A stretch of DNA of 64,000 nt. It comes from a candidate division FCPU426 bacterium. GTDB lineage: Bacteria > Oederibacteriota > Muellerivitia > Muellerivitales > Muellerivitaceae. This document shows positions 4,511-54,893 of this stretch, piece after piece. The notes under the pieces are model-generated. The model saw only the letters and a list, made by a program, of their open reading frames with translations, was not told where the DNA came from and did not search any database. The position numbers and the translations under genes were made by a program. The number at the start of each line of letters is the position of its first letter. The first letter of the stretch is position 1. The stretch covers positions 1,377,999-1,441,998 of the forward strand of contig CAVRAL010000001.1 of assembly GCA_963719085.1 (NCBI GenBank), read 5' to 3'.

Positions 4511-4569
4511 ATGACGAATTATATCGAAGACTTAGGCCGCAGGCTACCAAAACCTAGGGTCAAAAATCC

Positions 4570-5919: not shown

Positions 5920-8175
5920 TTGCCGATCGAAAAACCAAAATCCTCAAACTCCCATTTTTGGAAAATCTTTTTCCTAGTCGCCTTCGCCCTGATCGGCTCG
6001 GCCATGGGCGTCATTTACGCCCATCTGCAGGAATTGCCCGACATCACCAACCTGAACGAGTTCAAACCGTCCCAAGCCACCCGCATCTATGACATCAACG
6101 GGGACCTCATCAGCCAATTGTGGCTGGAACAACGCACCTTGGTGCCGTTGGAAAAAATCCCCCTCCCCTTGCAGCAAGCGGTCATTTCCATCGAGGACTC
6201 GCGTTTTTACGAGCATTTCGGCATCGACGTCATCGGCATCGTCCGGGCCTTCATCGCCAACGTGGCCCACGGAGGGGTCAAAGAAGGCGCCAGCACCATC
6301 ACCATGCAGTTGGCCCGGAACCTTTTCCTGACTCCCGAGCGCACCTTTGGCCGGAAAGTCCGGGAGGCCCTGCTTTCCATGCAGATCGAGAAAAACTACT
6401 CCAAACAACAGATTTTGGAGATGTACTTGAACCAAATTTATTTCGGCGAAGGCGCCTACGGCTGTGAGTCGGCGGCCCGCACTTATTTTGGCAAACACGT
6501 GGAAGACTTGACCGTCCCCGAATGCGCCATGCTGGCGGCTTTGCCCAAGGCCCCCAATAATTATGACCCTTATAAGGATCCTTACGACGCGCTGAAGCGC
6601 CGCAACCTGGTTTTAAATTCGATGGCCGACAACAATTACATTTCCCTGCAGGAAGCCACCGAATTTAAAAACACCCCGATTGAGCTGAAAAAAATCGAGG
6701 TGCAAAACGCCCCTTATTTCGTCGAGTTTGTGCGGCAGCAGTTGGAAGCCCGCTACGGTTCAAACGCCGTCTATAAGGGCGGTCTTTCGGTTTACACCAC
6801 GCTCGACATGAAGCTTCAAGAAGCCGCCCAATTGGCTTTGGAAAAAGGGTTGGAAAACGCCGAGGCCCAGGCCCTCAAAAACCGCCAAAGCAATATCCCG
6901 GTCGATCAAACGATCCAAGGCGCGCTTTTGGCGATGGATCCGCATACCGGGGCGATCCGCTCCATGATCGGCGGGCGGGACTTCCGTCAAAGCGTTTTTA
7001 ACCGGGCCATCCAAGCCAAACGCCAACCCGGATCCGCTTTCAAACCCATCATTTACGCCGCCGCCATCGAGAACGGCTACACCATGGCGGACGTGTTTCT
7101 TGATTCCCCCGTGGTTTATCCCGATCCCACCACCGGCCAACCTTGGCGCCCCACCAATTTTTCCACGAAGTTCCGGGGCCCCACCACCTTGCACACCGCC
7201 CTGATGTATTCCATCAACGTGGTCACGATTAAGCTTTTGGACAAATTGGGCATTCAACCCGTGGTCAGCATGGCCCGGCGCTTGGGCATCACCACGCCCA
7301 TCAAACCCAACCTGTCCTTGGGGCTCGGCACGTCCGAAGTGACCCTGCAGGAAATGGTTCAGGCCTTCTCGGTGTTCGATAACCAGGGCATCCGGGTGGA
7401 ACCCTTCGCCATTCTTTCGGTGAAAGACGCCTCGGGCCGGGTGCTGGAAAACAACTCGCCCGTCGCCCAAGCGGTGCTGGATCCCGACACCGCCTATATC
7501 ATGACCCATACCCTGCAGGATGTGATCGACCACGGAACCGGCCGCATCATCCGTTTAATGGGATTTACCTACCCGGCCGCCGGTAAAACCGGAACCACCA
7601 ACGACAACGTGGACGCTTGGTTCCTGGGCTACACGCCGGACCTGACTTGCGGGGTGTGGGTGGGTTATGACGACCGAATCAGCCTGGGCAAAAAACAAAC
7701 CGGCGGGGAAACCGCCGCCCCGATCTGGGCCGATTTCATGAAGGCCGCCACCGAGGGAAAAGCCGTGAAGGATTTCCCCCTTCCCAACGATTCGGACACC
7801 GAATTCGTGACGAAGAAAATTTGCATGGACTCCGGGCTTTTGGCCGGCCCCTATTGCCTGCGCACCCGGGATGAGATTTTCAAGAAGGAAACCGCCCCCA
7901 CCAAGTTCTGCAATATCCACACCGGCCCCAGCGCCACTTTATCGGGCACCACGGAAAATGACTCCACTTCCACCAACCCGGCCCAAGGTGACGGGGACAT
8001 TCTGGAAATGGAAGCGGGCCAGCAAAGCGCCGCGCCCCAAGGGGCTTCACCCGCGGCCTCTACTTCGGAAACCCCGGGCGCGACCGGCGAGAACCTTACC
8101 GCCCCGGCTCCCGCCGCTCCCAGCGCCACACCCACTGGCGGCGACAAGGATAGTTATCCCGACGCGGGATTCTAA
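5920..8175 (+). CDS. Class A penicillin-binding protein (PBP1A family)
   Basis: N-terminal TM; transglycosylase [23 protein letters not shown]; transpeptidase SAFK, SIN, KTG; low-complexity tail. Confidence 0.95.
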
Positions 8176-8419
8176 TCACCGCAATTAACATTGAGGTCCC
8201 GGGGCTCCATATTGAAGTCAAGGACGCCGGGGACAATGTCGCTCTCCGCTAACATCTATATATGGACAAGCGACGCGCGCGCAGATAAACACCGATAAAA
8301 CCCAAAACTTTTTTCTCTCGAAAAACCGTTAAAAAAGATTAGTAAAACGCCCGATTTGGATTTTAGGCAAAATCAGCGTGTAACTGCGTCCATCATTGTA
8401 AATTAATCTTTTGTGGAGT

Positions 8420-17831: not shown

Positions 17832-18401
17832 TTACATCATACCCAGTTGAAGACGGGCGGCTTCGGTCATCAGGCTTTGGTTCCAAGGCGGGTCAAAAGT
17901 CACGTCCACAAAAGCCTCGGACACACCCGGTATTTGGCCCAATTTTTCCTCAATCTCATTTTTCAGGACCGTGGACATCCCGCAGCCCGGGGCCGTTAAG
18001 GTCATCACCACTTCCACCCGGCGCCCGCCCCGCTCCGCGGGCCTGATTTGACAGCCGTAAATAAGACCCAATTCCACGATATTCACGGGAATCTCGGGGT
18101 CATAACAGGTCTTGAGAGTGCTCCAAACGCTTTTTTCAAGTTCCACGTCATCGATGGGCTGATTCGCGTCATAGTTGATTTTAAAAACGCCGCCGGCTTC
18201 CGGAACCGGTTTTCCCAGAGCGTCGGCGTTTTTGCCTTCCACCCGCACCAATTGCCCGTTGTCCCTTTGCACGGTGAAACTGCCGCCCAAAGTTTGGGTC
18301 AAATAGACTTTTTCGTCTTTATAGAGCTGCGTCTTGGTCCCGGCCGGAATGGCGGTTCCCTCGGTGTCCCTAAATAGCGTGATCAGTTCTTCAGCCACCA
18401 T
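17832..18401 (-). CDS. sufT: Fe-S cluster assembly protein SufT (long form, DUF59)
   Basis: TQTLGGSFTV, CYDPEIPVNIVELGLIY, MTLTAPGCGM, FDPPW. Confidence 0.93.
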   Translation of the reverse strand: MVAEELITLFRDTEGTAIPAGTKTQLYKDEKVYLTQTLGGSFTVQRDNGQLVRVEGKNADALGKPVPEAGGVFKINYDANQPIDDVELEKSVWSTLKTCYDPEIPVNIVELGLIYGCQIRPAERGGRRVEVVMTLTAPGCGMSTVLKNEIEEKLGQIPGVSEAFVDVTFDPPWNQSLMTEAARLQLGMM

Positions 18402-18865
18402 TAAGCTTCCTCCTCGTCGCTGGAAACGACCTTTTGGTCGTCATGAAGCGCGGCTTCCAGCGTATGCCAGGCTAAGCTGGCGCATTTGACCCGGGCCGGA
18501 TAATCCCGCACGCCGGCGAAAACTTTCAGTTTGCCCAAAACCTCGCCCGACTCGGGCGCGCTTTTACCTGTCACCAAATCATGGAACTGATGGAAGAGGA
18601 TTTCCGCCTCGTCGATTTTTTTGCCCTTGAGGGCGGCCGTCATCATGGAGGCGGAGGCTTTGGAAATGGCGCAGCCGCTTCCTTTAAACTTCAGGTCCTC
18701 AATCACGCCCGACGCGTCGGTTTTCAAATCGAGTGAGATCTTGTCGCCGCAAAGGGCGTTAAAGCCTTCGGCGTGGTGATTGGCGCCTTCCAGCTGCCCG
18801 AAATTTCTCGGGTTCTTCTGGTGGTCCAGGATCAATTCTTGATAAAGCTCGCTTAAATCGGACAT
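18401..18865 (-). CDS. sufU: SUF system NifU-family protein SufU
   Basis: LYQELILDH..NPRN, N.LCGD, GCAISKAS, RVKCASLAWH. Confidence 0.95.
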   Translation of the reverse strand: MSDLSELYQELILDHQKNPRNFGQLEGANHHAEGFNALCGDKISLDLKTDASGVIEDLKFKGSGCAISKASASMMTAALKGKKIDEAEILFHQFHDLVTGKSAPESGEVLGKLKVFAGVRDYPARVKCASLAWHTLEAALHDDQKVVSSDEEEA

Positions 18866-20118
18866 TAGCGGAATACCTCCAAAACATGCCGGATCGCCGA
18901 ATCGAGCGCGTCCACTTCGGCGCGGGTATTATAAAGCCCGAAAGAAGCCCGGGCGGTGGCCGGGATATCAAACCGTTCCATCACCGGCTGGGCGCAATGG
19001 TGGCCCGCCCGGATCGCGACTCCCCGCCGATCCAAAATAGTGCCGATATCATGGGGATGAATGTCCCCCAACACAAAAGACAAAACCCCGGCTTTTTTCT
19101 TCGCCGTTCCGATCAACCGCAATCCCGGAATTTGGGATAGCTTTTGGGTTCCATAAACTAAGAGTTCATGCTCATGAGCCGCGATCGCCGCAAGGCCCAC
19201 TTCACTCACGTAATCCAAGGCCGCCGTCAAGGCCACCACACCCGCGATATTAGGCGTTCCGGCCTCGAATTTGTAGGGCGGCTTCTTGTAAATCGTCTTT
19301 TCGAAGGTGACCGAGGAAATCATGTCGCCGCCGCCCTGGTAGGGCGGCATGGCCGAAAGGTGCTTGAGTTTGCCGTACAACACGCCCACGCCCGTGGGTC
19401 CGTAAATTTTATGCGCCGAAAAAACGTAAAAGTCGCAATCGAGTTTTTGGACATCCACGCTCAGGTGCGGAATAGCCTGCGCCCCGTCCACCAAAACCGG
19501 CACGCCCTTTTCATGGGCCAAGCGGATGATTTCCTCAATGGGGGTGATCGTGCCCAAGGCGTTGGAAACATGGGTGATGGCCACCAGTTTGGTCTTGGCC
19601 GACAAAAGCTTTTTAAACTCATCCATCAAAAGCTCGCCCGCGTCGCTGATGGGCACAACCCGCAAACGGGCCCCTTTTTCCTCAGCCAACATCTGCCAGG
19701 GCACGATATTGGAATGATGCTCCATGGCCGAAATAAGAATCTCGTCGCCGGAGCCGATATTTTGGCGGCCATAGGTTTGGGCCACCAAATTCACGCCTTC
19801 CGTGGCGCCCCGGGTAAAGATAATTTCCTGGACGCTGGGGGCGTTTAAAAAAACCCGGGCGCGGACCCGGGCCGCCTCATAATCTTTGGTGGCCCGCTCG
19901 CTGAGCAAATGAACGCCCCGATGGATGTTGGAATTATCCTCTTGGTAAAACTTGTCCGTGGCTTGAATGACGGACAAAGGCTTATGGGTCGTGGCGGCGT
20001 TATCCAGATAGACCAAGGGATGCCCATGGATTTGCTGTTGAAGAATGGGGAAATCTTTCCGGTAGCGTTCCACATCATAGGCTACCGCCGCGCGCGGAGT
20101 TTGCGTTTTCGGGTTCAT
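18865..20118 (-). CDS. sufS: Cysteine desulfurase SufS
   Basis: YLDNAATT, EHHSNIVPWQ, FSAHKIYGPTG, RAGHHCAQP. Confidence 0.97.
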   Translation of the reverse strand: MNPKTQTPRAAVAYDVERYRKDFPILQQQIHGHPLVYLDNAATTHKPLSVIQATDKFYQEDNSNIHRGVHLLSERATKDYEAARVRARVFLNAPSVQEIIFTRGATEGVNLVAQTYGRQNIGSGDEILISAMEHHSNIVPWQMLAEEKGARLRVVPISDAGELLMDEFKKLLSAKTKLVAITHVSNALGTITPIEEIIRLAHEKGVPVLVDGAQAIPHLSVDVQKLDCDFYVFSAHKIYGPTGVGVLYGKLKHLSAMPPYQGGGDMISSVTFEKTIYKKPPYKFEAGTPNIAGVVALTAALDYVSEVGLAAIAAHEHELLVYGTQKLSQIPGLRLIGTAKKKAGVLSFVLGDIHPHDIGTILDRRGVAIRAGHHCAQPVMERFDIPATARASFGLYNTRAEVDALDSAIRHVLEVFR

Positions 20119-20119
20119 G

Positions 20120-21427
20120 TTAAGCTCCCGCGCCTTTCCGGAGCCATTGCTGAAAAGCTTTTTCCAGCGGCTCCCGAAGGCTCTTAGGTTCCACCCGGTC
20201 CACCAACTCCCCGGCGAAAGCCGAGACCAAAAGATGGCGGGCCTCCTCTTTTCCGATACCGCGGGCCCTTAAATAAAAAAGGGCTTCCTCATCGAGTTGG
20301 CCCGTGGCCGATCCATGGGAGCATTTCACATCGTCCGCGTAAATTTGAAGTTGGGGTTTGGAATAGATCTTCGCGGTTTTCGAGAGTAAAAGGTTTTTAT
20401 TGCTTTGGCGGGCGTCGGTCTTTTGGGCGTTTTCCCGCACCAAAACCCTTCCGTCAAAAACACCGGTGGCCTCATCTTCCAGAACCCCCTTGTAGGTTTC
20501 CTGGCACGAGCCATTCGGCGAGGCATGGTCAATGAAAGTCTGGTTATCCACATGGTGGTGATGGCGGGCCATAAAAAGGCCGTCCAGAACCGCTTCCGCC
20601 CGTCGGTCCGCGAGCAGGGTCTCGGTTTCGTTGCGGACCAGTTTTCCCCCGAAGGAAAAAACCCGGGACGTGAAATGACTGCCCGATTCCTGGCGGACTT
20701 CGACCGTCCCCAAATGGACGTTTTTTTCGGACTCATTTTGAATTTTCACGTGGGAAAGTTTGGCGCCGGGGGCGAGTTTAATTTCAGTGACCGAGCTGGA
20801 CAAGGAAGCCCCGGTCGATTCTTCCAGGAAATGTTCCACCACCGAGATTTGGCTGTTGGCGCCCAGCGCCACCAAATTGCGGACGCAGGAAGCTTGGGCT
20901 AAGACGGAAACAAAAACCGCGTGAACGGCTTGAGAAATCACCTGATTTTCAGCCACGAAGACAAAGAGCCCGTCTTGAAAAGAAGCCAGGTTGAGCGCGC
21001 CGAAGGCGTCCGAGTCCAGGGGCGCGATTTTCCCCAAGACCGCCTCCACTTGCGGATCGGAGAATTTCGCCGCTAAATTCCCGATTTGAACGCCCGCTTC
21101 CAATGGTTTGAGCGAGGATTGTTCGGGTGAATAGACCCCATCGATAAAAACCAGCCAGATGTCTTTTTCAACGTCATAACCCGAGGATTTCAGCTTCGAA
21201 AGGATCTTGGACTTTACCGGGCCCGGCGCTTCCCTTTTAAGATCCGCGGTCAAATAAAGGGAAAGGTCGGTATATTTCCATCTCTCATTTTTAGGCGTGG
21301 GAAAACCCGTCTTCTGAAAATGAGCAAACGCCTTCTCCCGCAAAGCCGAAAGCCAAGTGGCGCCCCCGGAAACGGGGGCCGGTTTGAAGACCGAAAGGTA
21401 GTTTTCTTGAATCCGGGTGAAATCCAT
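20120..21427 (-). CDS. sufD: Fe-S cluster assembly protein SufD
   Basis: ERWKYT, AQKTDARQSN, KPQLQIYADDVKCSHG, LFYLRARGI. Confidence 0.95.
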   Translation of the reverse strand: MDFTRIQENYLSVFKPAPVSGGATWLSALREKAFAHFQKTGFPTPKNERWKYTDLSLYLTADLKREAPGPVKSKILSKLKSSGYDVEKDIWLVFIDGVYSPEQSSLKPLEAGVQIGNLAAKFSDPQVEAVLGKIAPLDSDAFGALNLASFQDGLFVFVAENQVISQAVHAVFVSVLAQASCVRNLVALGANSQISVVEHFLEESTGASLSSSVTEIKLAPGAKLSHVKIQNESEKNVHLGTVEVRQESGSHFTSRVFSFGGKLVRNETETLLADRRAEAVLDGLFMARHHHHVDNQTFIDHASPNGSCQETYKGVLEDEATGVFDGRVLVRENAQKTDARQSNKNLLLSKTAKIYSKPQLQIYADDVKCSHGSATGQLDEEALFYLRARGIGKEEARHLLVSAFAGELVDRVEPKSLREPLEKAFQQWLRKGAGA

Positions 21428-22191
21428 TATCGTTTCACTTCACTTTTCAGGCCGTCCACGATCCAACCGTAGCCCTTCCCTTCCAACTCACGGGCCAGTT
21501 CTTTGCCGCCCGACTTGACGATGCGGCCATTGGCCAATACATGGACATGGTCGGGAACGATATAATCCAAAAGCCGCTGGTAATGGGTCACTAAAAGAAC
21601 CGCCCGGTCCTTTCGCTTAAAGGCGTTCACGCCGTCGGCCACCACTTTCAAGGCGTCGATATCCAATCCCGAATCGGTCTCGTCCAGAATCGCCAGTTTG
21701 GGTTCCAGGACCGCCAACTGCAAAATCTCATTTTTCTTTTTCTCGCCGCCGGAAAAACCCTCGTTGACCGACCGGGTGAGCATGCTTTCGTCCATCTTCA
21801 ATTCTTTTAGTTTGGCCTTCACGATTTCCAAAAAGTCGAGGGCATCCAGTTCTTCCAAGCCCTTGGACTTGCGCACCGCGTTGACCGCGGCCTTCAGGAA
21901 ATAAGTGTTGTTGACGCCCGGGATTTCCACCGGGTATTGGAAGGCCAAAAAAACGCCCAACCGGGCCCGTTCTTCGGCCGGAAGCTCCAGCAGATTTTTA
22001 CCCTCGAACAAGGCTTCTCCGCCCGTCACCGTGTAGTCTTCCCGGCCCGCCAAAACATTGGCCAAGGTGCTTTTGCCCGACCCATTGGGCCCCATGATGG
22101 CGTGCACTTCGCCCGGATTCAGGGTTAAATTGATCCCATTAAGAATCTGTTTGTCTTCCGCTTTGGCCGTCAGGCCCTTGATCACCAGCAT
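21427..22191 (-). CDS. sufC: Fe-S cluster assembly ATPase SufC
   Basis: MGPNGSGKST, AFQYPVEIPGV, GFSGGEKK, LDETDSGLDIDAL, THYQRLL. Confidence 0.97.
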   Translation of the reverse strand: MLVIKGLTAKAEDKQILNGINLTLNPGEVHAIMGPNGSGKSTLANVLAGREDYTVTGGEALFEGKNLLELPAEERARLGVFLAFQYPVEIPGVNNTYFLKAAVNAVRKSKGLEELDALDFLEIVKAKLKELKMDESMLTRSVNEGFSGGEKKKNEILQLAVLEPKLAILDETDSGLDIDALKVVADGVNAFKRKDRAVLLVTHYQRLLDYIVPDHVHVLANGRIVKSGGKELARELEGKGYGWIVDGLKSEVKR

Positions 22192-22213
22192 TTAACTCTC
22201 CCGACAAGTTTTG

Positions 22214-23659
22214 TTATCCTACACTGCCTTCCAAACTCACGCTTAAAAGCTTCTGGGCCTCCACGGCGAATTCCATCGGCAGTTTTTTAAAGACTTCCTT
22301 GCAAAAACCATTCACGATCAAGCCCACCGCGTCCTCGGTGGAAAGTCCCCGCTGGCGGCAATAAAAGATCTGGTCCTCGCCGATTTTGGAGGTGGACGCC
22401 TCATGTTCGACCCGCGCGGTGTCGTTTTTCACTTCGATATAGGGGATCGTATGGGCGCCGCACTCGCCGCTCATTAAAAGCGAGTCGCACTGGGTGTAAT
22501 TTTTGGCGCCCTCGGCTCCCGGCTGGATCCGGACCAACCCCCGGTAGGTGTTTTGGCCATGTCCGGCCGAAATCCCCTTGGAAATAATGGTGCTGGTGGT
22601 GTTTTTTCCCACATGGATCATTTTGGTGCCCGTGTCGGCCTGCTGGTAGTTATTGGCCACCGCCACGGAATAAAACTCGCCCACCGAGTTATCCCCCTGC
22701 AAAATACAGCTGGGATATTTCCAGGTAATGGACGATCCCGTCTCCACCTGGGTCCAGGAAATTTTCGAGCGCACTCCCCGACAGGCGCCGCGCTTGGTCA
22801 CGAAGTTATAAACCCCGCCCTTGCCGTCTTTATCGCCCGGATACCAATTTTGCACCGTGGAATATTTGATCTCGGCGTTGTCCAAGGCCACTAATTCCAC
22901 CACGGCGGCGTGAAGCTGATTCTCGTCGCGCATGGGGGCGGTGCAGCCTTCCAGGTAACTGACGTGGCTGCCCGCGTCGGCGATCAGAAGCGTACGCTCG
23001 AACTGGCCGGTCTTGGCCGCGTTGATGCGGAAATAAGTGGAAAGTTCCATCGGACAACGCACGCCCTTGGGGATGTAGCAAAAGGAACCGTCCGTAAAGA
23101 CCGCGCTGTTGAGGGCCGCGTAAAAGTTGTCGTTATAAGGAACCACCGAACCCAGGTATTTTTGCACCAAGTCCGGATGCTCCTGTACCGCCTCGGAAAA
23201 AGAGCAAAAGATGACGCCCATTTCCGCCAGCTTCGCCCGGAAAGTCGTCCCGACCGACACGCTGTCAAAAACCGCGTCCACCGCGATGCCGGCCAAAGCT
23301 TCCCGCTCCTGCATGGGCACGCCCAGCTTCTCAAAGGTTTTGAGGATCTCGGGATCGACCTCGGCTAAACTTTTGGGCCCCGCCTTGGGCGCCGAGTAAT
23401 AAATGATGTCCTGGTAATTGATCTTGGGATAATGGACATTCTGCCAGGTCGGCTCTTTCATCTTCAGCCAAAACCGGAAACTTTTCAGGCGCCATTCCAA
23501 AAGGAACGCGGGCTCTTTTTTTTTGGCCGAGATAAAACGAATGATGTCCTCATTCAAGCCCGGCGGGGCCGAGTCGGCCTCCACATCGGTCACGAAACCG
23601 TATTTATAGTCTTCGGCGACAACTTGTTCGATGGGTTGTTCCTGCGCCTTCGGCTTCAT
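22214..23659 (-). CDS. sufB: Fe-S cluster assembly protein SufB
   Basis: [36 protein letters not shown]. Confidence 0.98.
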
Positions 23660-24147
23660 GCGCGCTCCTTAAGCTCGTGCCGCTTTTGATCCCCCAAAAC
23701 GGGGGTTTGAATCCACTTTTCCATTTGAGGCTCGGTCGCCACCAGGTCCGACAACTTACTTTTCGTCAAATAACCGGAAATGACCCGCTCCAACCCGCTC
23801 CAAAGGGAACGGATGGAGCAATCCACCGAATGCACGCAGGTCTCATGTTGGCCCGGAAACTTGCTGCAAGATTCTTCCCGGGAGTAAAACTTGCCGCCCA
23901 GGGCTTCCAAAACCTCATTCACGCTGATCTCGTTGGCCGGCCGGGTTAACTGGTATCCGCCGCTTTGGCCCCGAATGCTGCGCACCAATTTCGCTTTTCG
24001 AAGAATGGCCATGAGTTTCCCCACATAAGCGGGGGTGAGGGCTTCCCTTTCGGCCAGTTCCACGATCGTGAGGGTGCCGGTATGGCCTTTTCGGGCCATT
24101 TGGAGCATGCACCTTAAACCATATTCATCCACTGATGAAAACTTCAT
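23656..24147 (-). CDS. Rrf2 family transcriptional regulator heading the suf operon
   Basis: [15 protein letters not shown] winged HTH; three Cys in the C-terminal part as potential Fe-S ligands. Confidence 0.92.
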
Positions 24148-26686: not shown

Positions 26687-27187
26687 CTAGCGGAAATTAT
26701 TAAACTGAAGGGCCACTTTAATATCCGAAGCCGATCGAAGCAGCTGCATGGCTTCCTGCAGGTCGTCCTTGGATTTTCCGGAGACCCGCACCTTCTCATC
26801 CACGATGGAAGCCTGCACCTTCAACTTGGAATCCTTGATGCGTTTGACAATGTCCTTACAGGCGTCCATGGGCATTCCGCTGATGATCTTGACCTTCTGG
26901 GTCAGGGTTCCGCTGAAGGCCGGCTCCGCCTTTTGAAAGTCCAGGGCTTTGGGGGACAGGTTGCGCTTGATGAACTTACCCTTCAGGATGTCCGTGACCG
27001 CGGTCAGGCGCGACTCGTTGTCGGCCTTGATGTCCAGTTCTTTGGCGGCCTTGTTCAACACCACCTCGCTGATGCTTCCCTTAAAATCATAGCGTTGGGA
27101 AATTTCTTTCATGGCCTGGTTAATCGCGTTATCGACTTCCTGCAGGTCGACTTCCGAGACCACATCAAATGAGTAAGCGTCCGCCAT
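26687..27187 (-). CDS. yajQ: YajQ family nucleotide/cyclic di-GMP-binding protein
   Basis: SFDVVSEVD.QEV.NA, RYDFKG, KVQASI, RVSGKSKDDLQ, LQFNNFR. Confidence 0.96.
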   Translation of the reverse strand: MADAYSFDVVSEVDLQEVDNAINQAMKEISQRYDFKGSISEVVLNKAAKELDIKADNESRLTAVTDILKGKFIKRNLSPKALDFQKAEPAFSGTLTQKVKIISGMPMDACKDIVKRIKDSKLKVQASIVDEKVRVSGKSKDDLQEAMQLLRSASDIKVALQFNNFR

Positions 27188-35736: not shown

Positions 35737-38700
35737 TTAGTGGAGAACCACGATCTTGACCATTTGACGATCGACGAAATGACCGTCGCTATCGGTTAGG
35801 ACCACCACGCCAATATACATGCCGCTGGCGAGAGTCGCCGTGTCCCAGGTCAACGAATTAGAACCCGTTTGGGTCTTGATGTTTTTCAGCAATTCCCCAT
35901 CCATGTCATAAACCGTCAAGTGGAAGGTCAATTGCAAAGGCGAGTTGATGGTGATCGTGGTGACCGTGTTGCCATCCTTCAAAACCTGGGGATTGGCGTA
36001 AACTTTTCCTTCCGCGGGGCTATTGCCCGTTCCCAAAACCACAACTTCTTTTGTATCGATCAAATCCCCGCCGCTTCCATCGGACCAATGGGCTTCGACC
36101 ATATATTGGCCGTTGGAAACGACCTGACCTCCGTCCGACCTTCCATCCCAAACCAAGCTGATCCCCGAGCCGGCGACGTTGGCTTCCACGTTTACGCTGA
36201 CCGTTCCCGGGGCGCCTTGGGCGGTCGTGTTGCCCGGATCAATGACATTGGAGGACAGTTGAATGTCGGACATTTCCGCTCCGTTGGGATCATTCACGTA
36301 ACTATAAAGATGGCGGACGATTTCACCCGACGAATTGAAAATATCCACCTCAATCTTGGTGAGTACCCGGTTGACCACGACCGGTTGGGAAACGCTGGTC
36401 ACCACGCCGTACGGGTCTTGGCTGTCCAATTTGATGTAATACTGGCCGTTGTCAACCGGAGCCCCGGCTTGGTTCGTTCCATTCCAAGACGCGAGCGCCA
36501 CCCCGTTGACGATCACATAAACCACCCCGTTCAGGCTGGTGATTTCCTCGGTTTGTTCCAACTGAAGGCTGTCCATGGGTTGGGAATAGGTTTGAATCAA
36601 AATTTGCTTGATCAACTCTCCCGCCGAGTTATAAACCGCCAAATGCACCAAGTAATTGGCGGAAACCTCAACATTTGAGGTAACCGTCTTGGGCACGTTG
36701 AGGCTGGCATAAGTCAGGCTCGCCGTATTGATCAAGTAGGTGGCTCCCGGAACGTCGTTATCCACGCTAGCCGTGTAGGTTAAGGTCACCGATCCGGTTG
36801 GCAGAGGCGTCCCGGAGAAATCCCAGGTCAAGACCTGACCGACCGCCGTGGGTGTCGGCGCGCCCGAAGGCAGCGGCCCGGAAGGACCAAAAGAAACAAA
36901 GGTCATATAGGCGGGTAGTTTATCCACCACCTTCACTTGATTGGCCGTGTTCCCCACCACGCTCAAGGTGATGGTGTAAGTAATGACATCGCCCGCCTTC
37001 GCCACGGTCTGGGAAGCCGTCTTTTGGATATTTACGTTGGGAGTCGGCGTCGGCGTAAAGCTGGGCGTAAAGGTAGTCGTCGGGGAGAACGTGGGGGTAT
37101 TGGTAAAGGTTAAAGTCGGGGTAAAGGTGGTGGTCGGTGTATTCGTCGGGGTAAAGGTGAAGGTTTTAGTCCAAGTCAGGGTCGGGGTGAAGGTCGGGGT
37201 GAAGGTTGGAGTAATGGTCTTGGTAAAGGTCGGCGTAAAGGTATAGGTATCGGTAAAGGTATTCGTCGGCGTCCAAGTCGGAGTGGGCGTGGAAATAGGC
37301 GTGTCCGTAACGGTGTTGGTGGGCGTGGGGGTTTTCGTGACGGTCCAAGTATTGGTCGGCGTCCAGGTATTGGTCACCGTAAAGGTGTTCGTAGGCGTAT
37401 GAGTCGGCGTCGGGGAGTTGGTGGGAGTCCAAGTATTGGTTGCGGTCCAAGTATTCGTCACCGTCGAGGTGACCGTCGGGGTCCAAGTATTCGTAATGGT
37501 ATTCGTCGGCGTCCAGGTATTGGTGGGGGTTTTCGTATTCGTCACCGTCGGCGTGTTAGTGGCTGTCCAAGTATCCGTCACTGTATTCGTCGGCGTAAAG
37601 GTGTTTGTTTCCGTCACCGTGTTGGTCGGCGTAAAGGTATTGGTCACCGTGTGAGTCGGGGTCCAAGTGAAGGTATCCGTAATGGTGGGCGTGAACTGAT
37701 AGGTGTTGGTGATGGTCGGCGTCCAAGTAACGGTCGGGGTATTGGTCGGGGTGAAGGTATTGGTCATGGTTTTGGTGTTCGTGACGGTCATTGTGCTTGT
37801 CGCCGTGTTCGTCGGGACCGAAGTCGAGGTCGATGTTGAGGTGGAGGTCGGAATCGAAGTCGAGGTGCTGGTTGCCGTCCAAACGGATGTCGCGGTGGAT
37901 GTCGCAGTCGGAATCGACGTGGCCGTTGAGGTGCTCGTCGTGGTCACCGTGGAGGTGGCCGTCGAGGTGACGGTGGCGGTTTTAGTCGGCGTGATGGTCG
38001 GAGTCACCGTGGGCGTAATGGTCGGCGTGATCGTGGGCGTAATGGTGGGGGTTACCGTCGGCGTATTCGTCGGCGTGATAGTCGGGGTCACCGTGGGCGT
38101 AATGGTCGGCGTAACCGTTGGCGTGATGGTCGGCGTTATCGTGGGGGTGACCGTGGGAGTTTTAGTCGGGGTGATCGTCGGCGTTTTGGTCGGCGTAATG
38201 GTGGGCGTGGGGGTGACCGTGGGCGTCGGAGTCTTGGTGGGCGTGGGGGTTGGCGTGGGCGTCGTGCAAACGCCGTTCCATTGGAAATAATCATAGTCAA
38301 TATCATTACAATGGCCGCCGTCATAACCCAGCAAGCCGCCCGTATAGGTGCAATCGGAGAAGGTGGCGACCACCGTATAGGCCGCTGGGCTCGTTCCAAC
38401 GGAAACCTGGAAATTACAGCCGTTGATGATGACTTGAACCCAGATGGCGTTGCACATAATGGACTGAACCGCCCCGGTCAAGGCCGCCGTCGAAACCGTG
38501 GTAAAGGTGCCGTTGGTGATTTTCCCGAAAACCAAGGAACTTCCAGGGTTGCAACCATTATTCACGAAATGCAAAGCGTATCCATCGCCCGTGCCGCGCT
38601 GATAATTCCAAAGAAGCCCGTCGTCCTGTTGGCTCCCGACCTTCATCTCCACTTGAAGCGTGCCGGGGCCGCTCGCCACCTCATCCATTAAAAGCTGGGA

Positions 38701-39972
38701 ATCGTTATAGCTGCCGCAGCCCGTATTTTTAATAAACCCGCCCGATTGAACCCAGGCGGTCCCTTGCGTCACCGGCACCATACCCGTCACCCATCCCGGA
38801 GGCGCTCCATAAAAAGTACCCGTGGCATGATTCCAGGTCACCGAACACTGCGGCACGATGGGACAGGCCATTTGGGAAACCAAGGCTTGCTGGTAATAGG
38901 TTGTCTTGCTCAAGCTGTCGATCAGGGGCATGCCCCATTCCAGTTGGTTGCCGGTAATGGCGCTGGCGGGATAATCTTGGTTGGGATAATAATCCCGGAG
39001 TTTGGCCACTTGGTCCGGACCCGTGCCGCAATCCAAAATGAAATCAGGACCCTTGAATACAGGCGGACCACCCGCGCCCGAAACGCCGCCCGAACCATAA
39101 GGCTCTAATTCTTCCGGATCATCGGTATGGCCGCAGCCGTCATTCGCCCCAACGGCGGTAAACCGCGTCAGTGAATTGGCGCAATTCACCCCGGCGCAAT
39201 TCCAGTCTTGCTTGGCGTCCGTCGGGGCCTGTCCGTACTTAATTGAAACCGCGCCCGGATTTCCGCCGTCATCCTCAATATGCCAGGCTTGATTTCCATC
39301 GGAAAGATCCACGACGTTGACGGTGTTCACCGCGGGATCGTCATAAAGGATGATGACCGTCCAAGTCTGACACGCGTAACCGTTGGTCAAACTGAAGGAC
39401 GCGTTATAAAAAATTTGATTAGGCCCGGCCCCGATGCCCGTAATATCGCTGGGCGGCAACGGGAAGCGGGCGCCATCCCAAGATTGATAATAAGGAAAAT
39501 TCTCGGGCGAACCCAAGGGCACCGCGCCGCTCACCGCGTTTCCGTTAAACACGGCCGTACTGCCGGTCAAATCGGGCGGCGTCACACCGGTCGGTTGGCC
39601 CGCGCCCAGTCCTTCCACGTATAAAAAGGCCGTCACCGGAATGGCGCCCGCGGGTAAATTCACCGTCACGGGTTTTCCGCACTGCGCGGTCGCCGCGACA
39701 TAATTCAAGCCCACATCGCTGAAGACACCCAATTGCTGCATGGAATAAGTGCTCGGCTGGCTTGGCGCGCTGCTGTTACAAACCGTCAGCGCGGCAAACG
39801 CCGGGGAGCCCAAAACCGCGAGTGAAAGGAATGAGAATAAAAAAATGACGGCGCGGGACTTTAAGAAAGTCCGCGAAATCGGGGATAGCACAACTTGAGG
39901 GTTGAACGCTTTTAGGAGCGTGACGACCACCTTCACATTTTTTTCATAGAAACGTTTTAAGTCCATCGTCAA
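35737..39972 (-). CDS. Large secreted/surface protein: Cys-rich N-terminal domains, Thr-rich stalk, DUF11-like domain, two FlgD-Ig-like domains, C-terminal sorting-like domain
   Basis: Signal-like segment ..SPAFA; IQKTAS...[12 protein letters not shown] (DUF11); [18 protein letters not shown] and [17 protein letters not shown]; terminal LASGMY..KIVVLH. Confidence 0.75.
37039..38265 (-). repeat. Coding low-complexity repeat, about 410 codons with Thr at nearly every second residue
   Basis: [20 protein letters not shown] and TFTP units in the translation. Confidence 0.9.
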
Positions 39973-49794: not shown

Positions 49795-49877
49795 GATTGA
49801 CCCCGTTTTTAATTAGGAAGAAGAAACGAGAGTCTAAATCATCTTAAAAAGGGAGGCAAGCCATAAAAGGCTTGGAA

Positions 49878-51197
49878 TTAGGCGCCCGTTGGAAAATAGG
49901 AGGCCTCGCCGGAAACTCGAAGCACGCTGTTCTCGCCGCCCAACGAATCCTCTTCCCGGATCGGATTGGCTGGATCGGCGATCCATTCCACACCGTTGAG
50001 GACGAACTTATAGTGATAAGCCCCGGGATTCAGCGAGATGATGAATTGGTAAGACCCGTCCGCCTGACGCTGCATGTAGTCGGCTTCCTTGTCCCAATTG
50101 TTGAAACTGCCCACCAGCGCCACCTTGGAAACTTCCCGGGACGGCTTGTAGGAAACCGGAATCTTGATCAGAGGCTCGAACGCCACCACCTGGTTGCGGC
50201 CCCGGGACTTGGCTTGGTACAAGCTCTTGTCGGCTTTCTTGATCAGGTCATCCTCAGTGGCCGCGTCCACCGGAAAAGTCGCCACACCCGCGGAAACCGT
50301 GATGTGTTTCAGGGGCTGGGTTTCCATGCGGGGAAATATCCCTTGCTCAATTTTAAACCGGATCCGGTCCGCCAACTCATGGGCGCTGCGGCGGCTGGCT
50401 TCGGGCAGAATGATCACCATTTCTTCCCCGCCATAGCGGGCTACGATGTCCACTTCCCGCGCCTCTTCTTTGAGGATGGCGGCGATCCGTTTCAAGACCT
50501 CGTTTCCCGCCGGATGGCCATTGGTGTCGTTGTATTTTTTGAAGTGGTCGATATCAAAAATAATCAATGAGAGCAGGCGGTGGTATCGGTCCGCGCGGAT
50601 GCGTTCTTCCTTCAACCGATCCAGGAAATAGCCGAAGTTATAAAGCCCCGTCAACCGGTCCGTGATGGCCATCTGGCGGGTCCGTTCATAAAGAAGCGCG
50701 TACTCGATCGCCAGCACATCTTGATCCGAAAGATCCTCGTCTTTGGAGCGCATGGTATTCTCAAAAAAAACCAGTCCCAAGCGGTTCAACAACAGGGAAA
50801 CCTGATTCAGCCCTTCCAAAAACGGAGGATCGGTTTTGGACCCTTGAGGCGCCGAGCCCATCAAATCTTTTAAAATGTCCTTTAAAAAATCCCGGGCGAA
50901 AAAAAGAAACAAAACCATTTCGGCGTGGGTGAGCTGGTTCTCCGTCTGAAGGGCGCGCAGCTGCGAAATGATGGGTTTGAGCCCCAGGTCGACCGCCTGC
51001 TCGGCGCTTCCCGTGCTTTGAACCAGGGAAACCAGGTTGAGGATCAGCTTCTTCACTTCGTTGAAAACCCGGGATTCGGGCGTGAACTGGCTCAAACGCT
51101 GGACCAAATGGCCCATGGCGGCTTGCCAGCGTTCCTTGAGAAGACCATCGTTTTTCTCGATGAACTCGTTTAAAAAATGATCGTCGCGCTGTTCCAT
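49878..51197 (-). CDS. Diguanylate cyclase with N-terminal helical sensor-like domain and C-terminal glycogen-binding (CBM48/AMPK1_CBM-like) domain
   Basis: TDRLTGLYN, DIDHFKKYND..GH..G, REVD I-site, RYGGEEM; C-terminal V.LVGSFNNW..L.PG.Y.YKFV.NG.W..DP.NP; ATG after AAGGA. Confidence 0.9.
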   Translation of the reverse strand: MEQRDDHFLNEFIEKNDGLLKERWQAAMGHLVQRLSQFTPESRVFNEVKKLILNLVSLVQSTGSAEQAVDLGLKPIISQLRALQTENQLTHAEMVLFLFFARDFLKDILKDLMGSAPQGSKTDPPFLEGLNQVSLLLNRLGLVFFENTMRSKDEDLSDQDVLAIEYALLYERTRQMAITDRLTGLYNFGYFLDRLKEERIRADRYHRLLSLIIFDIDHFKKYNDTNGHPAGNEVLKRIAAILKEEAREVDIVARYGGEEMVIILPEASRRSAHELADRIRFKIEQGIFPRMETQPLKHITVSAGVATFPVDAATEDDLIKKADKSLYQAKSRGRNQVVAFEPLIKIPVSYKPSREVSKVALVGSFNNWDKEADYMQRQADGSYQFIISLNPGAYHYKFVLNGVEWIADPANPIREEDSLGGENSVLRVSGEASYFPTGA

Positions 51198-51225
51198 TGT
51201 AGGGTCCTTCGCATCATAAGCGTCA

Positions 51226-52782
51226 TTAAGATTGGAAACGGATCCGCCGATATAAATCAAGATAGGCTTGAGCCGAAGCGTCCCAGGAGAAATCCTGCTG
51301 CATTCCCCTTTGAACCAGGCCTTTCCATATTTTGGGCTGATGAAAGGTCTCCAATGCCCGCCGTACCGTCGCCAACAAGTCTTCCGTGACGTAGTTTTCA
51401 AAAACGAAGCCCGTCCCCTTTTTCCCGTCCAGGGACAGGTTTTCAATGGTGTCGGCCAAGCCCCCGGTTTTGCGCACGATCGGAACCGTCCCATATTTCA
51501 GGGCGATCAACTGGCCCAGGCCGCAAGGCTCGAACCGGGAAGGCATTAAAAATAAATCGCTCCCGGCGTAGATGAGTTTGGCCAGCCGGTGGTCAAACTT
51601 GAGATTGAGGGAAAACCGGTCGGGAAATTGGTCGCGCAATTCCTGGAACAAGGCGTGATAACGCGCGTCGCCCAGTCCCTGGATGACGAATTGGACGTTT
51701 TCAGCCAGCATCTCATTGAGGATCCCCGCGATCAGGTCCAGGCCTTTTTGATCGGCTAAACGGGACACCAAACCAATGACCGGGGTATCCTCGTTGAGCT
51801 TTAATCCCGTTTCCTTCAGCAGTTGACGCTTGGCGTCCTGCTTATGCTCGATATTTTTAGGCGTGTATTGGGAGGGGATTTCTTTATCCGTGCCCGGGTT
51901 CCATTCCCCATAATCGATCCCGTTCAAAATTCCGTGCAGGTCCTTCGCGCGGGACTGCAAAACCCCTTGCAGGCCATAGCCAAAATCATCCGTCTGGATT
52001 TCCTTGGCGTAAGTGGGTGAAACCGTGTTCAAGGCCGTGGAATAAACCAAACCCGCCTTGAGATAGTTCACTTGGTCGTAAAATTCCATTTTTTCCGGGC
52101 TAAACTCGTCCCAGCTTAAACCCGTCATCGGCAGCATATATTTGGGGAAAGTTCCCTGATAGGCCATGTTGTGGATCGTGAAAAGGGTCTTCATATGGTC
52201 AAAATGGGGTTGGGAGCGGTAAAGCTTTTCCAGATAAGGCGCCACTAGCCCGGTTTGCCAATCATTGAGGTGCAGGACATCCGGATACCAGTTGAGGACT
52301 TTGAGCATCTCCAGAACGGCCCGGGAAAAAAAAGCGAAGCGTTCGGCGTTGTCGGGATAATCGCCTTCCGGGGTTCCATAGAAGCCATCGCGGTCAAAAT
52401 ACCGGGCCGCCTCCACTAAATAAACCATCCCGTGGCTGTTGCCAAGCCTGGTGGAAAGGATATTGGCGTCCACTTCCCCCATGCCCATGGGGACTTGAAG
52501 GCCTTTCACTTCCAGGCGCAATTTGTATTTCTCGGACGAAATCACCTTATATTTCGGAAGGACAACCGCTACTTCGCATCCCAGTTTCATCAAAGCGCCG
52601 GGCAAAGATCCCACCACATCGGCCAAGCCCCCGGTCTTGGCGAAGGGAGTGACTTCCGAGGCCACGAATAATATTTTCAATTTAGGAAACTCGCCGAAAG
52701 CCTTGGGCTTCGCCGCGGCAATGGGTTTGGGTTTTAGGGTTTTCTCGCGGGGCATCAAAAATCCGTCGGTTAAATTTGCCAT
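51226..52782 (-). CDS. glgA: Glycogen synthase
   Basis: ASEVTPFAKTGGLADV, DNAERF, HLNDWQTG, TIHN.AYQG, SRLADQKG, MPSRFEPCGLGQL. Confidence 0.97.
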   Translation of the reverse strand: MANLTDGFLMPREKTLKPKPIAAAKPKAFGEFPKLKILFVASEVTPFAKTGGLADVVGSLPGALMKLGCEVAVVLPKYKVISSEKYKLRLEVKGLQVPMGMGEVDANILSTRLGNSHGMVYLVEAARYFDRDGFYGTPEGDYPDNAERFAFFSRAVLEMLKVLNWYPDVLHLNDWQTGLVAPYLEKLYRSQPHFDHMKTLFTIHNMAYQGTFPKYMLPMTGLSWDEFSPEKMEFYDQVNYLKAGLVYSTALNTVSPTYAKEIQTDDFGYGLQGVLQSRAKDLHGILNGIDYGEWNPGTDKEIPSQYTPKNIEHKQDAKRQLLKETGLKLNEDTPVIGLVSRLADQKGLDLIAGILNEMLAENVQFVIQGLGDARYHALFQELRDQFPDRFSLNLKFDHRLAKLIYAGSDLFLMPSRFEPCGLGQLIALKYGTVPIVRKTGGLADTIENLSLDGKKGTGFVFENYVTEDLLATVRRALETFHQPKIWKGLVQRGMQQDFSWDASAQAYLDLYRRIRFQS

Positions 52783-52834
52783 TCTCTTAAGGACTTAAAA
52801 ACCGGGCAGTTCGGCGTCTTTGGGAAACGTCGGC

Positions 52835-52862
52835 ATTATAGATTTAGGCCCAGGCATGTCAA
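52835..52862 (-). promoter_or_regulatory. sigma70 promoter upstream of glgA
   Basis: Consensus hexamers TTGACA-N16-TATAAT on the minus strand, 52 nt upstream of the first ATG. Confidence 0.8.
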
Positions 52863-52987: not shown

Positions 52988-54511
52988 TTACAGTGAATTC
53001 CAACGCTTTTCCAACCGGTCCGCCGAAAGATGGGGCTGGGCTTTCAGGGCCGCCTCCAACAGGGACCTGACCATAAGCCCCGTTTTTTCCCGGTCCTTCA
53101 ATTGCCGGAATAGGTCGTAGCCGGCTCCGCCCTCGGCGAGAAAACCGTTCGTGGCCACTTTATAACGGTACCGGTCATTCAGCGGCTCCGTCCCCACCAA
53201 AATGGTCAGCCCCTCGGGCGCGCGGCTGATGGTGAGGCCCGACACCTGCAAAAATCCGGCGCTTCCCGCCGCGGCGGCCGATTGTTCAATGACTTTGCGC
53301 AAAATTTTTCCCGGCATCTCAAAGGTGATGACATCGTCTTCATAGGGAAACAAGGTATAAAGATTTTCCCGGGTGAAGGGCCCGGCCTTTAAATCTTCCA
53401 CAAAGGCGCCGCTGTGAATGAGCGCGACGGCGGCGCCGCTGGCCTGGCGGACCGCGTCCGCGGTGATTTGCCCCAATAAAGAGTCGCCCGATTCGTTATT
53501 GGCCGCCGGGGCCGTCACGGTGGCGAGGACCTCGTCCAAGGAAAGGTTTTGCAGTTTTTTCTCGAACTTGGCCAGCAAGGCCAGCATCTGGGGGTCTTCC
53601 GGCAAGTCGGCTGTAATGGGAATGAGTTGATATTTATAATCCTGAATGGCGTAGCCGTGTTTACGATCCCCATCCACGGTTAAATCGAGCCGTCCCAAGT
53701 AAAGCCCGTGGGAGCCCGCCTGGACAATCAAGGGACCGTTTAAGGTTCCATCCTTGCGTTTGTCGACCACGGGGTCCGTTAGCACATCTTGGGAATAGCC
53801 GCCCACCACCACATGAAGGAAACTGTTTTCCTTCGCCAGTTTCTCGTCCGCCGCCAGGCCCTCATGGGTGAGCGCGATAAAAAAATCGGCGTCCTTTTTA
53901 AGGATCGAATGAAGTCCCTTGGCCACGTCGCTGGGCGGATAAAAGGTCAGCCCCCGTACATTCTCCCGTTTGGTGAGTTGAGGGGTTTTTTCGTTGCTAA
54001 ATCCGATGATCCCGATCCGAAGCCCGGGAACGCTCCTTAAAACATACGATTGCATGAAGTTCTGGCCGCCCACCATGATGGCGTTGGCCGAGATCCAATG
54101 GATTTTGTAATCCTTCTCAAAACCCAAAAGCGCTTTCTCGCCCTCATCAAAGTCCCGTTCGCCCAAGACCACGGCGTCATAACCCATTAACTTATAGGCG
54201 GCGCAATCCACTTCCCCCTTGGTCAGGTCGGATAAGGCGGTTCCGGTGAAAAGATTTCCGCCATCTACCAAAAAAACGCTGGAAGGGCCGACTTCCTGCC
54301 GGATTTTATCGACTAACGCCATGCGGCGCGCCACACCGCCCACCGGTTTGCTGGCGTCGCTGGAGGGAATGGGCTCCACTTGGCCTAATTGGTCATTGGT
54401 AAAAAGAAGCGTGAGGTGGGAAACCCGGGCTTGGGCGCTTAAGGGAAAACAGAGGAAAAAAAGCGGAAAGAAAAGCCGAAGGACCGTGAAAAAAACGTAT
54501 TTTGGTTTCAT
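52988..54511 (-). CDS. Secreted 5'-nucleotidase/UshA-like protein with degenerate active site
   Basis: Signal peptide; metallophosphoesterase plus 5'-nucleotidase C domain layout (TND, GG.AR, LVDGG, QAG..G.YLG.L, FLQVSG, FLA.GG.GY). Confidence 0.85.
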   Translation of the reverse strand: MKPKYVFFTVLRLFFPLFFLCFPLSAQARVSHLTLLFTNDQLGQVEPIPSSDASKPVGGVARRMALVDKIRQEVGPSSVFLVDGGNLFTGTALSDLTKGEVDCAAYKLMGYDAVVLGERDFDEGEKALLGFEKDYKIHWISANAIMVGGQNFMQSYVLRSVPGLRIGIIGFSNEKTPQLTKRENVRGLTFYPPSDVAKGLHSILKKDADFFIALTHEGLAADEKLAKENSFLHVVVGGYSQDVLTDPVVDKRKDGTLNGPLIVQAGSHGLYLGRLDLTVDGDRKHGYAIQDYKYQLIPITADLPEDPQMLALLAKFEKKLQNLSLDEVLATVTAPAANNESGDSLLGQITADAVRQASGAAVALIHSGAFVEDLKAGPFTRENLYTLFPYEDDVITFEMPGKILRKVIEQSAAAAGSAGFLQVSGLTISRAPEGLTILVGTEPLNDRYRYKVATNGFLAEGGAGYDLFRQLKDREKTGLMVRSLLEAALKAQPHLSADRLEKRWNSL

Positions 54512-54542: not shown

Positions 54543-54893
54543 CTAAAACTCTCCGACCGCGTCCTGCTCGGTTTTCAAGATATGAAAAAGTCCCGGAAGT
54601 TCCAATAAATCAAAAACTTTATAAATATCAGGGCTGACGTTGGCGATTTTAATGTCGCCCCGGTTTTTGCGCACATCCTTGATGATGGACATCAGAACAC
54701 CGAAACCGGCGCTGGAGATATAGGTGAGTTTTTTCATGTTAAGAACGACTTTATACTGTTTCTTTTTGAAGAGATCTTGCAGCACTCCCTCAAACTCGCC
54801 CACGGTATTAATGTCTAAAACGCCCTCAATATCAACGACGGTCACCGCCGTATTGGACATAGCGGCCCGAGCCGCGAGAACCAAGCGCTCCAT
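54543..54893 (-). CDS. STAS domain anti-sigma factor antagonist
   Basis: G.LD, L.YISSAG.G motif with phosphorylatable Ser; AGGAGG RBS. Confidence 0.92.
   Translation of the reverse strand: MERLVLAARAAMSNTAVTVVDIEGVLDINTVGEFEGVLQDLFKKKQYKVVLNMKKLTYISSAGFGVLMSIIKDVRKNRGDIKIANVSPDIYKVFDLLELPGLFHILKTEQDAVGEF

Follow-up and report, generated by a model that had tools for sequence, protein, structure and literature searches.

A glgA-linked GGDEF protein with an AMPK-beta-type CBM48 module, a candidate glycogen-tethered cyclic-dinucleotide synthase in candidate division FCPU426

Gene arrangement at the glgA locus

The stretch of DNA considered here, called the window throughout, comprises 64 kb of the genome of a candidate division FCPU426 bacterium (phylum Oederibacteriota; GenBank assembly GCA_963719085.1, contig CAVRAL010000001.1, here C1, positions C1:1377999-1441998). 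It carries the glycogen synthase gene glgA and, directly downstream, a gene (dgc) for a protein that combines a GGDEF domain, the catalytic domain of diguanylate cyclases, with a putative glycogen-binding module. This protein, hereafter the cyclase, is the subject of the analysis. All locus coordinates are those of the window, and the genes of the finding lie on its minus strand. In the direction of transcription, the features are the following.

52835..52862, minus strand: sigma-70-type promoter, TTGACA-16 nt-TATAAT, with 12/12 consensus matches; predicted from the sequence
51226..52782, minus strand: glgA, ADP-glucose-type glycogen/starch synthase, 518 amino acids (TIGR02095 and Glyco_transf_5 matches)
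51198..51225, minus strand: intergenic gap of 28 nucleotides (nt), with the Shine-Dalgarno-like hexamer GAAGGA 9 nt before the cyclase ATG
49878..51197, minus strand: the cyclase (P0001), soluble, 439 amino acids, RsbRD_N-like / GGDEF / CBM48 (translation and Pfam)
49847..49874, minus strand: weak terminator-like hairpin with a 6-bp stem, then the U-rich tract CCUCCCUUUUU (terminator scan)

The original prediction, which was made from the letters of the DNA, had named the promoter, glgA, a 28-bp gap and a protein of 439 residues, and all of these are present where it had placed them. The ATG of glgA follows 52 nt downstream of the promoter. It is the single perfect TTGACA-N16-18-TATAAT site across the 64-kb window, and none of 100 dinucleotide-preserving shuffles contains one. 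GlgA matches TIGR02095 with 580 bits (cut-off 328.45) over residues 36-513, and it carries both the GT5 and the GT1 domain (PF08323 Glyco_transf_5, 296.8 bits; PF00534, 51.8 bits). Residues 1-35, ahead of the model match that starts at residue 36, are an N-terminal extension rich in Lys and Pro that the family model does not cover. The matches of GlgA orthologues begin at residues 30-108 because the loci were cut there.

The terminator scan found no terminator-like site in the 28-nt gap between glgA and the cyclase gene. The hairpin listed above directly follows the stop codon of the cyclase gene, and ileS begins 53 nt beyond it; its folding energy is -9.2 kcal/mol (z -1.99), and 10 of 200 shuffles were equally stable. 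By the usual operon criteria, which here are a shared strand, a short gap, no intervening terminator and one promoter upstream, glgA and the downstream cyclase gene probably form a two-gene unit that is driven by the consensus promoter and co-transcribed. A look through public sequencing runs listed no RNA run with this sequence.

Domain architecture of the cyclase

The three-domain architecture first proposed for this protein, with a helical N-terminus, a GGDEF domain and a C-terminal CBM48 (a family of carbohydrate-binding modules, CBMs), proved correct. The protein had also been called soluble, which agrees with a highest 19-residue Kyte-Doolittle mean of 1.08, a value that leaves no membrane segment. 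An AlphaFold2 model of the full cyclase was built on an alignment of 62 sequences and reached a mean predicted local distance difference test score (pLDDT) of 88.3 and a predicted template modeling score (pTM) of 0.76. Conservation counts given below as a number out of 62 refer to these same aligned relatives, and structural matches come from a comparison of the model against 48,161 Protein Data Bank (PDB) representatives. The parts of the protein map to the window as follows.

50682..51197, minus strand: N-terminal all-helical domain (residues 1 to about 150) and connecting helix 158-178; RsbRD_N-like (sensor-globin-like), assigned via orthologues
50190..50669, minus strand: GGDEF domain, residues 177-336 (PF00990, 147.2 bits, cut-off 23.8)
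50502..50504, minus strand: codon AAC for Asn232, at the position facing the Watson-Crick edge of the nucleobase (alignment to solved GGDEF domains)
50448..50459, minus strand: RxxD inhibitory-site motif (REVD, residues 247-250), five residues upstream of GGEEM
50418..50432, minus strand: GGEEM active-site motif, residues 256-260; GGEE invariant in 62/62
49911..50138, minus strand: C-terminal AMPK-beta-type CBM48, residues 354-429, with W368, K397, W405 and N423 (PF16561)

The CBM48 module is the part of the protein that points toward glycogen, and its proposed kinship with the AMPK beta subunit is borne out by family match, fold and conserved residues. It scored 44.9 bits against PF16561 (AMPK1_CBM; cut-off 26.8), while the score against PF02922 (CBM_48) was 21.3 bits by hmmscan, just below the cut-off of 22.4, and 24.1 bits in a six-frame search of the genome. 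The predicted beta-sandwich matches the folds of a Pyrococcus amylase (4aef_B; Z 12.7 over 85 aligned residues), human AMPK beta-2 (6b2e_B; Z 12.2, root-mean-square deviation 1.6 over 82 residues) and yeast Sip2 (2qlv_E; Z 12.2). At the sequence level, the module resembles the AMPK beta-1 CBM that was solved with cyclodextrin (1z0n; E 3e-7). W368, K397, W405 and N423 align with the Trp of FNNW, the Lys of YKF, the second Trp and the Asn of that structure, and they are conserved in 62/62, 62/62, 61/62 and 62/62 relatives, respectively. Their counterparts, presumably W100, K126, W133 and N150 in AMPK numbering, are what we take to be the sugar-contacting residues of AMPK beta.

The GGDEF domain had been described as apparently active, and the motifs on which that view rested, DIDHFK, GGEEM and RxxD, are indeed present and conserved; what had been overlooked is an Asn at the base-specificity position. 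The cyclase scored 174.8 bits against TIGR00254 (cut-off 37.4). The metal-binding residues D215 and D217 are invariant, as are N223 and R254 (62/62 in each case), and within RxxD the conservation is 58/62 for R247 and 62/62 for D250. The fifth residue of the GGEEM motif is more variable (M in 33, L in 22 and F in 7 of the relatives). The pair of residues that reads guanine, which we take to be N335 and D344 in PleD, is incomplete in the cyclase: N223 is there, and the Asp position is occupied by Asn232.

Canonical cyclases with an inhibitory site (I-site), such as PleD (1w25), WspR (3bre) and DgcR (6zxm), share with this protein the GGDEF fold (Z 25.9-27.0, with PleD at 25.9 and WspR at 27.0; 38-40% identity), the GGEE motif, the metal-binding Asp residues and an RxxD motif five residues upstream. 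The cyclase differs from them by Asn232, by an RsbRD_N-like input domain in place of a receiver domain, and by the additional C-terminal CBM48. The intact GGEE, metal-binding Asp residues and RxxD motif suggest that it most likely makes cyclic di-GMP (c-di-GMP) under feedback control. In the same vein, the conserved I-site argues for c-di-GMP as the product, and Asn232 leaves room for an altered specificity.

The N-terminus had been likened to that of RsbR, and the likeness stands for the family but not for the window copy itself. Residues 1-175 of the window cyclase gave no Pfam match at E values up to 10 and no sequence match in the PDB. The comparison was extended to an N-terminal alignment of 25 members, which comprised the window copy and 24 orthologues of 42-83% identity. 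When these N-termini were scanned singly, 20 of the 25 matched PF14361 (RsbRD_N; best E 1.3e-8), 4 matched a HisK-N-like globin family and 1 matched Rsbr_N. The ESM Atlas gave RsbRD_N clusters at 0.81 and 0.78 for this domain, to be taken as a lead only. A separate model of the N-terminal domain (pLDDT 79.0) had a best Z of 7.8, within the chance range for helical bundles, and Foldseek returned nothing for it at E values up to 0.001.

Among known systems, the stressosome sensors of the RsbR type, with their non-heme globin domains at the N-terminus (RsbRD_N, Rsbr_N; Moorella MtR), resemble the cyclase family through the PF14361 matches. The structural similarity of the model to the RsbR N-domain 3zta (Z 6.8 over 112 residues) is weak and falls, like that to the sensor globin 3pmc (Z 6.3), within helical-bundle noise. 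The cyclase differs from those sensors in having no STAS domain, with the sensor-like domain fused directly to GGDEF. At the family level, then, the assignment of the N-terminus as a putative RsbRD_N-like input domain holds, with the orthologues as its basis.

A proposed role on glycogen

The reading we favor, to which we would give about an even chance, is that the protein is a cyclic-dinucleotide synthase tethered to glycogen, that it probably makes c-di-GMP, and that its gene is probably co-transcribed with glgA. The architecture, the conserved catalytic and sugar-binding residues, the gene order and the lineage-limited synteny are shown, whereas glycogen binding, the product, co-transcription and regulatory effects are inferred. 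The RsbRD_N-like helical domain would receive an intracellular signal and support dimerization. The GGDEF domain would produce c-di-GMP and be feedback-inhibited through its RxxD I-site, with Asn232 adding some doubt about the nucleotide. By homology with AMPK beta, the CBM48 would hold the cyclase on the glycogen of the cell itself, where GlgA also works. A second messenger might thereby be produced on glycogen particles, or as a function of them, and the state of the carbon reserve might be linked to c-di-GMP-controlled behavior or to the glycogen enzymes. GGDEF domains act as pairs. Because they must pair to act, multivalent glycogen could, more speculatively, alter activity by clustering or separating them.

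The component families are all known, and c-di-GMP has already been tied to glycogen metabolism; it is the fusion that is uncharacterized. The original prediction had stated that no characterized GGDEF-CBM48 fusion was known, and a description of one was likewise not found in the searchable literature: papers that name both diguanylate cyclase and CBM48 treat the two separately in the relevant passages. According to one report, c-di-GMP acts on glycogen breakdown in Streptomyces venezuelae through GlgX (PMC9530166). There the glycogen enzyme is the receptor, whereas here the predicted synthase itself carries the putative glycogen-binding module.

The CBM48 of AMPK beta (1z0n, 6b2e) has the same fold and the aligned Trp, Lys, Trp and Asn, and it too is appended to a signaling enzyme rather than to a glycoside hydrolase. 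The CBM studied here differs in being part of the same polypeptide as a nucleotide cyclase domain, while that of AMPK sits on a scaffold subunit of a kinase. In a cyclase that itself binds glycogen through such a module, second-messenger output would be coupled physically and directly to the carbon reserve, and if this reading holds, bacteria would have their own version of the AMPK glycogen sensor. Complex prediction for GlgA and the cyclase returned a score of 0.00 against a mark of 0.32, a result that speaks neither for nor against binding.

Linkage to glgA within and beyond the family

Conservation of the locus was followed through 99 genomes of the phylum, which fall into 23 families, with the family of the window's own genome designated f1. 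Full-length or fragmentary orthologues of the cyclase are found in 28 of the 30 other f1 genomes. The two genomes that have none, G056 (63% complete) and G060 (85% complete), also have no glgA match. All 24 f1 loci that include upstream sequence have glgA as the next gene upstream, in the same orientation; the other four are cut by contig ends. Even the split cyclase fragments of G063 and G065 adjoin glgA. Downstream, ileS follows in 24 of the 25 loci with sequence there, giving the order glgA-dgc-ileS. The estimated gap between glgA and the cyclase gene ranges from 19 to 257 nt and does not exceed 80 nt in 18 of the 24 loci. Thus, the linkage put forward in the original prediction is conserved in f1, but it is absent in f2, f10, f11, f13 and a metagenome lineage, where the relevant loci are these.

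L119 (G043:C3) 3642-8204, strand not stated: f2 locus with glgA directly before ileS, without the cyclase
L034 6176-6979 and L036 2612-3427, strand not stated: Cof-type HAD-IIB hydrolase directly after a GGDEF-CBM gene (TIGR00099)
L038 4528-5328 and L039 700-1518, strand not stated: Cof-type HAD-IIB hydrolase directly after a GGDEF-CBM gene (TIGR00099)
L134 2621-12963, strand not stated: metagenome GGDEF-CBM48 locus whose product is 73% identical to P0199 and has the canonical Asp

Several observations from these loci and from f1 itself weigh against the reading favored above. In the sister family f2, represented by a single genome that is 97% complete, glgA is followed by ileS at about 250 nt with no cyclase between them, and no AMPK1_CBM was found anywhere in that genome. 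Either the f1 lineage gained the cyclase gene at a site between glgA and ileS, or f2 lost it; in both cases the linkage counts as one event. In f10, f11 and f13, all eight genomes carry the GGDEF-CBM gene on a different contig from glgA or about 670 kb away from it. Its neighbors in f10 and f11 are a Cof-type HAD-IIB phosphatase (4 loci; TIGR00099, 145.6-158.3 bits), followed by a methyltransferase, ClpS and a rhomboid protein, and alternative neighbors outside f1 are MotA/ExbB and a GH116 enzyme. Three loci (L033, L035 and L037) were excluded from this reading of neighbors, since an overlapping open reading frame (ORF) on the opposite strand had stood in for the cyclase. In the metagenome lineage, the gene lies between ribonucleotide reductase/dCTP deaminase and IMPDH/GMP synthase (GuaA). 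Furthermore, glgA is near-universal (89 of the 99 genomes), so its co-occurrence with the cyclase is uninformative, and even within f1, 6 of the 24 gaps are 146-257 nt long and could hold promoters of their own. Lastly, Asn232 replaces the canonical guanine-reading Asp, and the product is therefore uncertain.

Some of these observations lend themselves to a rival account, in which an ordinary diguanylate cyclase is parked on glycogen. The CBM would then merely localize or store the enzyme, glycogen would have no effect on its activity, the glycogen enzymes would not be its targets, and the adjacency to glgA would be an accident of insertion. Both the intact glgA-ileS pair in f2 and the position of the GGDEF-CBM genes away from glgA elsewhere are in line with such an accident. 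Moreover, ileS is as conserved on the downstream side as glgA is upstream, so the synteny may simply be inherited. What argues against this account is that the short same-strand gap has been retained in all 24 f1 loci although the family members are only 57-89% identical, and that the sugar-binding residues of the CBM are under strong constraint. We consider it unlikely, though less so than the other rivals discussed below.

An invariant Asn at the base-specificity position

The glycogen-tethered c-di-GMP synthase proposed above depends on the nucleotide that the GGDEF domain accepts. At the base-specificity position, the cyclase reads GHpaGNevl, where DgcR has GHeiGDqv, WspR has GHvaGDea and the Hypr enzyme GacA (6d9m) has GHlvGSqv. 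The Asn thus aligns with the Asp of the canonical enzymes and with Ser348 of GacA. Asn232 is invariant in 62/62 aligned relatives and in all 138 family high-scoring segment pairs (HSPs) compared. Among 199 GGDEF HSPs from the nearest representatives at 50% identity, the position is Asp in 172, Asn in 21, Glu in 3, and Ser, Arg and Val in 1 each, and most of the 21 Asn copies come without a CBM. Of the 14 GGDEF HSPs in the window's own genome, 12 have Asp, and the only other copy with Asn has a degenerate SPNQY motif, which makes Asn232 unique among the intact GGDEF domains there.

According to PMC6456294, the residue at this position, Asp in canonical enzymes and Ser in Hypr enzymes, sets the acceptance of GTP versus ATP. 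A shift in nucleotide use is conceivable: like the Hypr enzymes, a GGDEF domain of promiscuous or altered specificity might make 3',3'-cGAMP, c-di-AMP or a mixture of products, so that c-di-GMP would not be the glycogen-linked signal, or not the sole one. Asn at a position where Hypr enzymes also depart from Asp, its invariance in the family and its uniqueness in the genome are all compatible with this, and on chemical grounds either purine could, in principle, be paired by an amide side chain. However, the RxxD motif is conserved, and in known enzymes this site binds c-di-GMP. The Hypr cGAMP synthases (Geobacter GacA, 6d9m/5VS9) resemble the cyclase in having a non-Asp residue here, but Hypr enzymes that naturally have Ser or Thr are always of the GGDE[F/Y] type (PMC6456294). 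The cyclase combines Asn232 with GGEEM and so falls outside the Hypr rule (Ser/Thr plus GGDE[F/Y]). In addition, the Asn found in 21 of 199 nearest HSPs, mostly without a CBM, may be a neutral variant. Altered specificity is accordingly given little weight, although the invariant Asn raises a separate question about which products GGDEF enzymes can make. A literature search for Asn at the GGDEF base-specificity position found no publication on it.

In the most far-reaching reading, glycogen particles could serve as signaling platforms, with a granule-bound GGDEF protein that senses the reserve through its CBM48, much like AMPK in eukaryotes. On account of its invariant Asn, this protein would release some cyclic dinucleotide besides c-di-GMP or in place of it. 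This is a long shot. If true, it would amount to a dedicated messenger of the carbon reserve, separate from the dozen or so canonical cyclases of the cell.

Other roles for the CBM48 and GGDEF domains

In AMPK, the CBM of the beta subunit additionally docks on the kinase domain. By analogy, the CBM48 of the cyclase might be an intramolecular or protein-binding regulatory module rather than an anchor, or its ligand might be another glucan or an oligosaccharide, for example maltodextrin or a sugar related to compatible solutes. In other lineages the neighbors are not glycogen genes but genes for a Cof-type sugar phosphatase and a GH116 enzyme, which would suit such a role, and the pTM of the full model suggests a defined arrangement of the domains. 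This possibility seems remote, given that the module is most conserved at the four positions that, in the AMPK beta-1 CBM, make contact with cyclodextrin, and that its closest structural matches are glucan-binding CBM48s.

It is more doubtful still that Asn232 impairs catalysis and leaves a scaffold on glycogen that senses GTP or c-di-GMP instead of a synthase: the residue departs from the canonical base-reading Asp at a sensitive position (4 of 5 D-to-S mutants of canonical enzymes were inactive; PMC6456294), but Asn is isosteric with Asp, and the invariance of GGEE, both metal-binding Asp residues, N223 and R254 is a pattern typical of active enzymes.

Distribution of GGDEF-CBM proteins

Beyond f1, GGDEF-CBM proteins with a different N-terminus occur in f10 (5/5 genomes), f11 (2/2) and f13 (1/1), where they are 45-48% identical to the cyclase over residues ~158-430. 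AMPK1_CBM was found in 41 of the 99 phylum genomes. The f13 genome, G074, also carries three stand-alone AMPK1_CBM frames beside its GGDEF-CBM protein (96-116 amino acids, 65.0-69.6 bits).

G074:C1:858619, G074:C1:998693 and G074:C1:317301, strand not stated: stand-alone AMPK1_CBM frames (AMPK1_CBM match)

In a word-indexed search, PF00990 and PF16561 occurred together in 118 of the best 120 clusters, which were at 50-100% identity and whose source annotation reads just "diguanylate cyclase". An exhaustive search covered 1.84 billion representatives, and 46 of the 150 proteins listed were scanned for domains, having been picked for several matched stretches or for a match that reached the CBM. 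GGDEF and AMPK1_CBM were found together in 11 of these, including proteins with the architectures EAL-GGDEF-CBM (P0124), GAF-GGDEF-CBM (P0151) and REC-GGDEF-CBM (P0186). The remainder comprised 14 multi-CBM proteins, among which 5 had an alpha-amylase catalytic domain, and 21 proteins with GGDEF but no CBM. The recurrence of the CBM with EAL, GAF or REC N-termini fits its use as a fixed targeting module or a second input. Because the pair is widespread in uncultured bacteria, as the 118 of 120 clusters and the EAL, GAF and REC inputs indicate, results obtained with one member would generalize.

A search with the CBM region only retrieved 50 proteins among 78 candidates, namely the cyclase family and one 732-amino-acid protein that carries cytochrome c and DUF15xx-type Pfam domains. 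Among the matches listed in a search of genome contigs with the full alignment, 79 loci were retained; all of them matched the GGDEF part alone, and they came from many phyla. A quick tree of 142 GGDEF domains placed the CBM-bearing ones in several groups, so that the CBM label needs 6 changes. A single origin of the fusion is nonetheless compatible with the well-supported branches.

Genome and window context

The window's own genome (3.04 Mb, 99% complete) contains AMPK1_CBM once only, in the cyclase. It also encodes a c-di-GMP network of about 15 GGDEF proteins, 5 EAL matches and 12 PilZ matches, together with one DAC-type c-di-AMP synthase. Within the window, a YajQ-family cyclic-di-GMP-binding protein (26690-27187, minus strand; NF003819, 194.8 bits) lies 23 kb from the cyclase.

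The glycogen genes of this genome are scattered, with glgP at C1:682463 and a CBM_48 enzyme at C1:1003713. As had been noted originally, glgA has no other glg gene next to it, and none was found in the window in a comparison of 47 of its ORFs with NCBIfam and of 17 with Pfam. No GlgC in the genome reached the TIGR02091 cut-off of 424.9 bits, and the best match below it is the following.

C4:390417-391418, strand not stated: best sub-cut-off GlgC match, in an 869-amino-acid frame (TIGR02091, 127.4 bits)

Directly upstream of the glgA promoter is a gene for a UshA-like 5'-nucleotidase/UDP-sugar hydrolase with a hydrophobic N-terminus (52991-54511, minus strand). A single-domain STAS anti-sigma-factor antagonist (54546-54893, minus strand; TIGR00377, 74.2 bits) is encoded 1.7 kb upstream of glgA. 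An Rfam scan of the window found no riboswitch, its single match being a tRNA (53-125, minus strand). Farther from the locus are an ORF for a CBM_11/CIA30 protein (259-1368, minus strand) and one for a 1411-amino-acid protein whose sole match is FlgD_ig (35740-39972, minus strand). The window also holds a complete suf operon for Fe-S cluster assembly (17835-24147, minus strand), consisting of an Rrf2 regulator gene, sufB, sufC, sufD, sufS, sufU and sufT.

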